IMG/VR virus record: IMGVR_UViG_3300029886_000148
Length of the DNA: 37,327 bases
Reading direction: 5' to 3' (one strand)
Source of the DNA: a virus
Taxonomy: Duplodnaviria; Heunggongvirae; Uroviricota; Caudoviricetes
Numbering within the stretch: position 1 is the stretch's first letter; the number at the start of each line of letters is the position of its first letter. The position numbers and the translations under genes are program-made. Positions 35,895 through 36,086 of this stretch are shown here, one piece after another. The notes under the pieces are model-generated. The model saw only the letters and a program-made list of their open reading frames with translations. It did no database searches and was not told where the DNA came from.

Positions 35895-36086
35895 ATGCTT
35901 GGTAAGGTATTTTTTGTGGTTTTGTCATGTTCTTTGTTATTAAACCCACTAACTACCTATGCTAGAAATTATCCCTGTTCAGGGAAAAAGGGAGGTGTTT
36001 CTCACTGTACCTCAGATGGCAAATTCGTTTGCAATGATGGAACTATTAGTAAATCCAAAAAAATCTGTACTAAAAACTCACGATAA
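35895..36086 (+). CDS. small secreted Cys-rich protein (63 aa), moron between cI and int
   Basis: Strong RBS GGGAGG 6 nt upstream; signal-peptide-like N-terminus [23 protein letters not shown]; mature part with 4 Cys; AT-rich. Confidence 0.5.

Follow-up and report, generated by a model that had tools for sequence, protein, structure and literature searches.

A positional counterpart of the locus reported here is found in the P2-related phage K139 of Vibrio cholerae, where the gene glo lies between the repressor and the integrase genes in an operon of the order cI-orf2-glo-int. Its product, Glo, has a signal peptide and is annotated in the GenBank record of the phage as "periplasmic protein; involved in phage exclusion". 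In Vibrionaceae, the K139-like members of the P2-related phages are reported to have a hotspot between repressor and integrase (PMC9122126), and a recent survey lists the interval between integrase and primase of P2-like prophages as a minor hotspot of defense, with 8% of the systems (PMC13586616). The two genes overlap by a single base in the annotated record of phage 186, where the stop codon of cI runs into the start codon of int. The stretch of viral DNA analyzed here (IMG/VR record IMGVR_UViG_3300029886_000148, Caudoviricetes; 37,327 nucleotides, hereafter the window) has a 63-amino-acid open reading frame (ORF) at positions 35895-36086 (+; stop codon included), between a cI gene of the 186 type and int. 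The encoded protein is a member of the catalogued YdcA family and hence not new as a find; it sits in a variable cargo slot and, as a tentative interpretation, may hinder the entry of foreign DNA into the lysogen.

Because cI and int overlap in phage 186, about 395 bp (35880-36274) are extra in the window. The first-pass annotation had pointed to the close linkage of the two genes in 186 and considered the ORF a cargo gene (moron) inserted between them, within the lysogenic unit; the phage 186 record bears out the linkage and the insertion, and the contents of the slot vary among sibling prophages, as expected of cargo. The junction between cI and int is a variable cargo slot of 186-like prophages that are integrated next to rcdA. 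It holds the YdcA gene alone in the window and in BL21, the YdcA gene together with that of a 443-amino-acid KAP-family NTPase in Escherichia coli (JA0257 and sibling loci L005-L008) and Klebsiella (L009/L010), the KAP NTPase alone in TUM9803, and, in H15, a pair of unrelated genes that follow a CI whose helix-turn-helix (HTH) domain is duplicated. The order cI-YdcA-int is present also in prophages of three Yersinia species, and the Haemophilus phage HP2/S2 has an unannotated homolog of 60 amino acids, which begins right at the stop codon of cI, with orf1(S) and int coming after it. P2-related phages of at least four genera thus have YdcA in their lysogeny operon, and the comparison shows that the repressor-integrase slot described for K139-like phages of Vibrio exists also in 186-like prophages of Enterobacteriaceae.

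The protein matches the NCBIfam model NF007463 (PRK10040.1-2) with 115.8 bits, above the curated cut-off of 93 (residues 5-63 on model positions 1-58 of 58), and PHROG 6000 with 1.9e-34 (label "unknown function"); its cluster in a large protein collection has a precomputed match to Pfam PF27300 ("YdcA"). A Pfam scan of the ORF itself gave only a sub-threshold match because PF27300 is absent from the copy of Pfam that was used. Identical DNA is present in chromosomes of porcine enterotoxigenic and edema disease E. coli (ETEC/EDEC), where RefSeq names the product "YdcA family protein" (WP_000900883.1) or "hypothetical protein". At a coverage of at least 80%, the 395-bp segment occurs in about one in nine complete genomes of E. 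coli (590 of 5426), including ATCC 8739 and BL21, whose segment is 94% identical to that of the window, and the exact 63-amino-acid protein is encoded on at least 1000 contigs. A near-identity search of a phage collection recovered the cI-YdcA segment from no deposited phage and matched only the 5' region of int. The catalogued family and its chromosomal paralog in E. coli K-12 had both been overlooked by the first-pass annotation. Clustering resolves the family into 464 groups at 50% identity and 872 at 90%; it is nearly all proteobacterial, with homologs in alpha-, beta-, and gammaproteobacteria.

The ORF starts 15 nt after the stop codon of cI, ends 188 nt before int, and is preceded by a Shine-Dalgarno sequence, GGGAGG, at 35884-35889 (+), 5 nt before its ATG. 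When the allele of the window was compared with those of sibling prophages of E. coli and Klebsiella, the 35 codons of the core showed 18-20 synonymous versus 2-3.5 non-synonymous differences; the dN/dS of the mature part is 0.02-0.035 where computable, with synonymous sites being saturated. In the same comparison, dN reaches 0.7-0.9 in the signal peptide versus 0.04 in the mature part. The combination of a fast-evolving signal peptide with a constrained core is typical of exported proteins under intense constraint in their mature part, and the ORF is a genuine gene under very strong purifying selection. The view that it is a spurious or decaying reading frame in an AT-rich spacer, which its shortness, its composition, and the bare label "hypothetical protein" in many records might invite, is effectively refuted by this pattern of conservation, and also has against it the score above the family cut-off, the homologs in three classes of proteobacteria, and the strong ribosome-binding site (RBS).

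The precursor begins with a positively charged n-region (K4) and a hydrophobic core of 12 residues, followed by T-Y-A at positions -3 to -1 of the putative cleavage site. In an alignment of 24 homologs, on which the prediction of the signal peptide is based, all 24 have an alanine at -1 and a small residue at -3, and the N-terminal 20-25 residues are hydrophobic and otherwise unrelated. Residues 1-23 (35895-35963, +) are therefore a predicted Sec signal peptide cleaved by signal peptidase I, and the mature domain (35964-36083, +) would comprise 40 amino acids (4.3 kDa, predicted pI 9.7). Its four cysteines (C28, C38, C46, and C58) are invariant in the alignment, as are P27, S29, K32, G33, G34, F44, D48, G49, S52, S54, and K55; the family signature reads PCSGKKGG[VI]SHC-x(3-5)-F[VI]CNDG[ST]xSxSKKxC, and the core is alike in 60 diverse members, with a mean net charge of +3.4 across the family. 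An AlphaFold2 model predicts a small core with a beta-hairpin (pLDDT 80.8). The reading frame with its RBS, the N-terminus resembling a signal peptide, and the four cysteines in a mature part of about 40 residues had all been noted in the first-pass annotation; the former are present exactly as claimed, and the latter agree with the alignment of homologs. Its argument from base composition fares less well: the GC content is indeed low (34.9% versus 50.3% for the whole window), but the low-GC block begins inside the C-terminal domain of cI (34.1% GC) and includes half of that gene, and 8.7% of segments of equal size have an even lower GC content, so AT-richness by itself is a weak argument. A fifth cysteine, C12, lies within the signal peptide in a context resembling a lipobox (V-L-S-C12). 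A lipoprotein was rejected because C12 is not conserved, being absent from many aligned homologs, including YdcA of K-12; it is the alanine at -1 that is invariant instead.

A distant relationship probably exists between YdcA and Dis2 (Lpg0823), a component of the core complex of the Dot/Icm system of Legionella and the only relative found in the PDB. Dis2 has 124 amino acids, two similar lobes, and five disulfides; it lies beneath the outer membrane in contact with the lipoproteins DotK, DotC, and DotD. Its lobe 1 and, in part, its lobe 2 share the signature CS-K-GG[IV]--C...VCN[DN]G--S. The literature on Dis2 considers it specific to Legionella. It is the top match of the AlphaFold model in a Foldseek search (TM 0.62, probability 0.85, 36% identity), and a homolog of Dis2 carries PF27300 in a precomputed Pfam table. 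The profile match has E = 1e-5 when the signal peptide is included; with the mature part alone, the E value rises to 0.046, and matches of LDL-A domains through their cysteine pattern are at least as good. Other PDB matches, to LDL-receptor class A domains, plant Pin-II inhibitors, lysozyme, and hepsin (E 0.016-3), were judged to be chance matches of cysteine patterns. A periplasmic location and two disulfides would be expected for the protein of the window, given its predicted signal peptide, the restriction of the family to Proteobacteria, and the disulfides of Dis2.

Longer members of the family suggest what the domain might do. Several have a signal peptide, the YdcA domain, and a low-complexity linker, followed by a nuclease domain of the type Endonuclease_NS (P0163, P0187, P0296, and P0331), SNase (P0108 and P0325), or PLD-like (P0180), three folds that are mutually unrelated. 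Another group of about 13 members adds a basic GPRGGxYC motif that resembles PBCV_basic_adap; further additions are the C-terminal domain of VasL (type VI secretion), DUF4124, and extra YdcA repeats. The fusion to three independent folds of secreted nucleases, together with the conserved face rich in lysine, glycine, and serine, is the best hint that the domain binds nucleic acids or other polyanions.

The interpretation that we tentatively favor is that of a periplasmic miniprotein, expressed in the lysogen, which binds DNA or another polyanion and hinders the entry of foreign DNA. The lysogenic promoter would drive cI and the ORF as one transcript, and translation of the ORF would start at its strong RBS, which should ensure a continuous supply in lysogens. 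The signal peptide of 23 residues would direct the precursor to the Sec machinery and be removed after T-Y-A, and the resulting basic miniprotein of 40 residues would be stabilized in the periplasm by two disulfides. Its conserved Gly/Lys/Ser-rich face might then bind a periplasmic polyanion, the prime candidates being DNA in transit and a conserved envelope component on the inner side of the outer membrane. Such binding would hinder the entry of foreign DNA, be it that of a superinfecting phage or possibly also transforming or conjugative DNA.

The first-pass annotation had suggested, as examples, a periplasmic, envelope-acting, or exclusion factor; this is plausible, and an exclusion-type role has a direct precedent in Glo, the periplasmic exclusion protein encoded in the same slot. 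Like Glo, the protein of the window has a signal peptide, albeit a predicted one, and its gene likewise lies between cI and int of a P2-related phage, in what would be the same operon. Glo serves as a precedent for a functional analog and not as a relative, since it has 137 amino acids, a different composition, and no sequence similarity to the protein of the window (BLASTP E = 0.16, 7 of 30 identities). An envelope location would be in line with the probable relative Dis2, which is pinned by disulfides beneath the outer membrane, and a role in conflicts among mobile elements with the presence of YdcA genes in Moraxella phages (Mcat phages, between tail chaperone and tape measure), Acinetobacter phages, and mobilizable or cryptic plasmids of 3.9 and 5.4 kb. 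Small exported proteins of resident phages that exclude others at the envelope include Sim of P1, Sp of T4, Llp of T5, Cor of phi80 and HK022, and Ltp of TP-J34, all of which act after adsorption. The protein of the window would resemble them by general description only, and it lacks a conserved lipobox, unlike the lipoproteins Llp, Cor, and Ltp.

Several points weigh against this role in exclusion. The export, the disulfides, and an exclusion phenotype are all predictions themselves; Glo is unrelated in sequence; only a small share of the family is fused to nucleases, and the domain might serve there as an anchor at the outer membrane rather than in DNA binding; and the 63-amino-acid protein matched none of the families in PADLOC (PADLOC-DB v2). 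There are also conserved, non-mobile copies on chromosomes in housekeeping contexts, such as ydcA of E. coli K-12 and a copy of the Moraxellaceae type between hom and cysS, with which a housekeeping role in the envelope fits at least as well as defense. YdcA of K-12 (b1419) is 57% identical to the protein of the window, and both have a signal peptide and a four-cysteine core of about 35 residues. The chromosomal gene belongs to the core genome and lies between cybB/rydC and hokB, whereas the copy of the window is borne by a prophage in the cI-int slot and falls into the subfamily NF007463; it reaches only 68.5 bits with the model of the chromosomal YdcA (NF007462, cut-off 118). The ydcA gene of K-12 has been reported as linked to YdcI and the response to acid, and the only published phenotype, which is not related to phages, is the sensitivity of an E. 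coli W deletion mutant to 300 mM 3-hydroxypropionate, described in a paper that also cites acid induction via YdcI.

Lysogenic conversion is one of the two main alternatives and has some, if limited, probability: the prophage would supply an extra dose or a variant of a housekeeping periplasmic protein that aids the envelope under acid, organic-acid, or similar stress and does not act on phages at all. The chromosomal paralog, the mutant phenotype and the cited acid induction, the housekeeping neighborhoods in other taxa, and the missing PADLOC match all speak for it, but the phenotype is a single indirect one from one study. Moreover, the repeated capture of the gene by phages and tiny plasmids and its site beside defense cargo in a hotspot of the defense type are more typical of conflict between mobile elements.

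The other main alternative, which we consider slightly less probable, is that the YdcA fold is a module for localization or scaffolding that docks to a protein or a site close to the outer membrane, so that the prophage protein would modulate a machine of the envelope (a receptor, a secretin, Tol-Pal, or a type IV secretion system) instead of binding nucleic acid. The contacts of Dis2 with three lipoproteins beneath the outer membrane, its rank in the Foldseek search, and the PF27300 match of its homolog are consistent with docking, as are the fusions with the VasL and DUF4124 domains, the anchor-like arrangement of an N-terminal YdcA domain and a long low-complexity linker in the nuclease fusions, and the name "Conjugal transfer protein", which UniRef gives to some copies. 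By contrast, the loss of Dis2 does not disrupt the complex and its effects are subtle at most; the link to Dis2 is weak when the signal peptide is omitted; and no partner is identifiable, as the immediate neighbors vary between elements. Among 143 flanking proteins from 80 species-level loci, there was no universal partner; integrase and CI were the most common neighbors, the others being host genes. The genes that adjoin YdcA on the small plasmids and in the Moraxella and Acinetobacter phages yielded no informative Pfam domains.

One neighbor in sibling prophages is the KAP NTPase, which is encoded at 4198-5529 in L005, 3212-4543 in L015, and 2153-3484 in L016, sibling prophages whose slots contain or lack YdcA, and which matches the PADLOC candidate PDC-S20 (1.3e-171). 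It is improbable that YdcA works as an accessory of this NTPase and that the copy of the window was left behind when the NTPase was lost. Such a history would be compatible with the order YdcA-KAP-int in prophages of E. coli and Klebsiella, the strength of the PDC-S20 match, and a stretch of about 123 bp (36064-36186) at the position where the KAP gene would be located, which in local blastn comparisons is found only in the variant with YdcA alone, homology to the other variants setting in at about 36187. However, YdcA alone is the variant of about 590 genomes and is strongly selected, the KAP gene occurs alone in TUM9803, and HP2, Yersinia, and plasmids have YdcA without KAP. No membrane segment or signal peptide is predicted for the NTPase, so the two proteins would occupy different compartments; KAP NTPases usually have membrane segments, and their absence is unusual. 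A partnership with the NTPase was rejected as the principal interpretation because each gene is found alone and the NTPase lacks a membrane or export signal.

The small plasmids bear on yet another explanation, according to which the product is an exported toxin, a bacteriocin-like peptide, or a signaling peptide directed against competitors. A small, basic peptide with four cysteines would be suited to this role, the YdcA gene on plasmids of 3.9-5.4 kb lies beside that of a membrane-anchored protein that might confer immunity, and there is a weak, non-significant similarity to plant proteinase inhibitors. Nevertheless, it is very improbable: in diderms, a Sec signal peptide takes a protein no farther than the periplasm, and the ORF comes with neither an exporter nor a lysis gene, single-copy versions are conserved on chromosomes without immunity partners, and the mature sequence is near-invariant across classes, unlike the usual fast evolution of toxins. 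On small plasmids of Acinetobacter and Psychrobacter (L019, 966-1697; L020, 1281-2240), the gene downstream of that for YdcA encodes a protein whose N-terminus has membrane helices, and the C-terminal domains of the two downstream proteins are similar by eye (…VNKNGKIDSLTVIY… and …IAKNGEINSITYIM…, respectively). The two genes may form a conserved module.

If the protein of the window is indeed a factor of exclusion or DNA entry, this would provide a function for the conserved y-gene product YdcA of E. coli and suggest a role for Dis2. A broader proposal, which we regard as doubtful, is that miniproteins with the YdcA fold are widespread and so far unrecognized periplasmic modules of phages, small plasmids, and secreted nucleases, duplicated in Dis2, that bind DNA or block its entry. 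Phages and plasmids would then deploy them from lysogeny or maintenance operons against incoming DNA, and nucleases would use them as substrate-binding domains; it would be the first function for both YdcA of E. coli and Dis2. Literature searches on the YdcA family, PF27300, PHROG 6000, and PDC-S20 found no functional study, and a gene that is small, extremely conserved, and common in E. coli is a tractable entry point to the function of the family.

The genes that flank the ORF are well defined. The 186-type CI repressor is encoded at 35310-35879 (+; Pfam Phage_CI_repr, 2.8e-33; Phage_CI_C, 2.7e-27); RefSeq annotates a "phage repressor protein CI" with the same coordinates on identical DNA. 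In the lysogenic transcription unit, cI would be the first gene. The tyrosine integrase is encoded at 36275-37327 (+; Int_N, 4.4e-31; Phage_integrase, 5.2e-21), the start being that of RefSeq. A consensus scan of the 15-nt gap between cI and the ORF yielded no match to a promoter or terminator on the plus strand, and the ORF would therefore be co-transcribed with cI in lysogens.

The right edge of the slot is formed by a block that is kept in all variants from about 36187 onward (36187-36274). It includes a promoter-like element (TTGACA-17-GAAAAT, 36222-36250, +), found by consensus scan, whose TTGACA is kept in six of seven aligned loci whatever the cargo (TTAACA in L015), and which has TAAAAT in place of GAAAAT in BL21, L015, L016, and L017. 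The element is followed by a 13-bp hairpin with a U-run (36245-36273, +; -17.1 kcal/mol, z = -4.2) that ends 1 nt before the ATG of int and contains the RBS of the integrase gene (GGAGG, 36261-36265). In L005 and L009, the sequence of the stem differs and its pairing is kept by compensatory changes; a consensus scan for terminators did not call the hairpin. It is a candidate for a terminator or an RBS-sequestering element that closes the unit of cI and cargo before int. The conservation of the promoter-like element and the RBS-containing hairpin irrespective of the cargo suggests that read-through from cI is kept away from int, which would be transcribed from a separate promoter into RNAs that lack the 5' arm of the hairpin. 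Unlike in phage 186, where cI and int overlap, int of the window has a separate upstream block.

The spacer between the ORF and int has further potential for RNA structure, with the fold predicted for 36080-36290 being far better than those of shuffled sequences (z = -5.6). A long imperfect stem-loop (36081-36146, +) overlaps the stop codon of the ORF and extends into the spacer, within the stretch of about 123 bp that is particular to the variant with YdcA alone, and a terminator-like match is present on the minus strand (36140-36124), where no minus-strand gene precedes it. A scan of 34800-37327 with Rfam found nothing relevant.

The prophage of E. coli H15 encodes a CI of 313 amino acids (L017, 869-1810), in which two tandem HTH domains of the 186 type are recognizable by eye. 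The genes in its slot encode a protein of 349 amino acids and a multi-pass membrane protein of 201 amino acids, and PADLOC gave no match for them. Within the YdcA family, a protein with three repeats (P0079) and other members have precomputed matches to DUF3761 (PF12587). The motif of DUF3761 (CxDGTxSxS…CSxHGGV) presumably reads as the second half of one YdcA unit and the first half of the next, and the two families may be related or permuted.

The prophage of the window carries additional cargo. A Septu pair, PtuA (16300-17628, +) and PtuB (17628-18281, +), with PADLOC matches of 9.6e-140 and 2.2e-99, is inserted into the region of the baseplate and tail genes, which are encoded on the other strand, and a truncated relative (strain P15-25) has a gene with an FRG domain at the corresponding site. 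Two genes at 27211-28562 (-) encode a 231-amino-acid protein of the HNH type, which matches the PADLOC candidate PDC-M68A (2.3e-29), and a 219-amino-acid protein without a match; judging from the gene order, they are probably located in the classical P2 hotspot between replication and portal genes. At 10593-12343, the gene of a serine DNA invertase (Resolvase and HTH_7 domains) adjoins tail-collar and tail-fiber-assembly genes on the opposite strand, which is consistent with an invertible segment of tail-fiber genes that determines host range.

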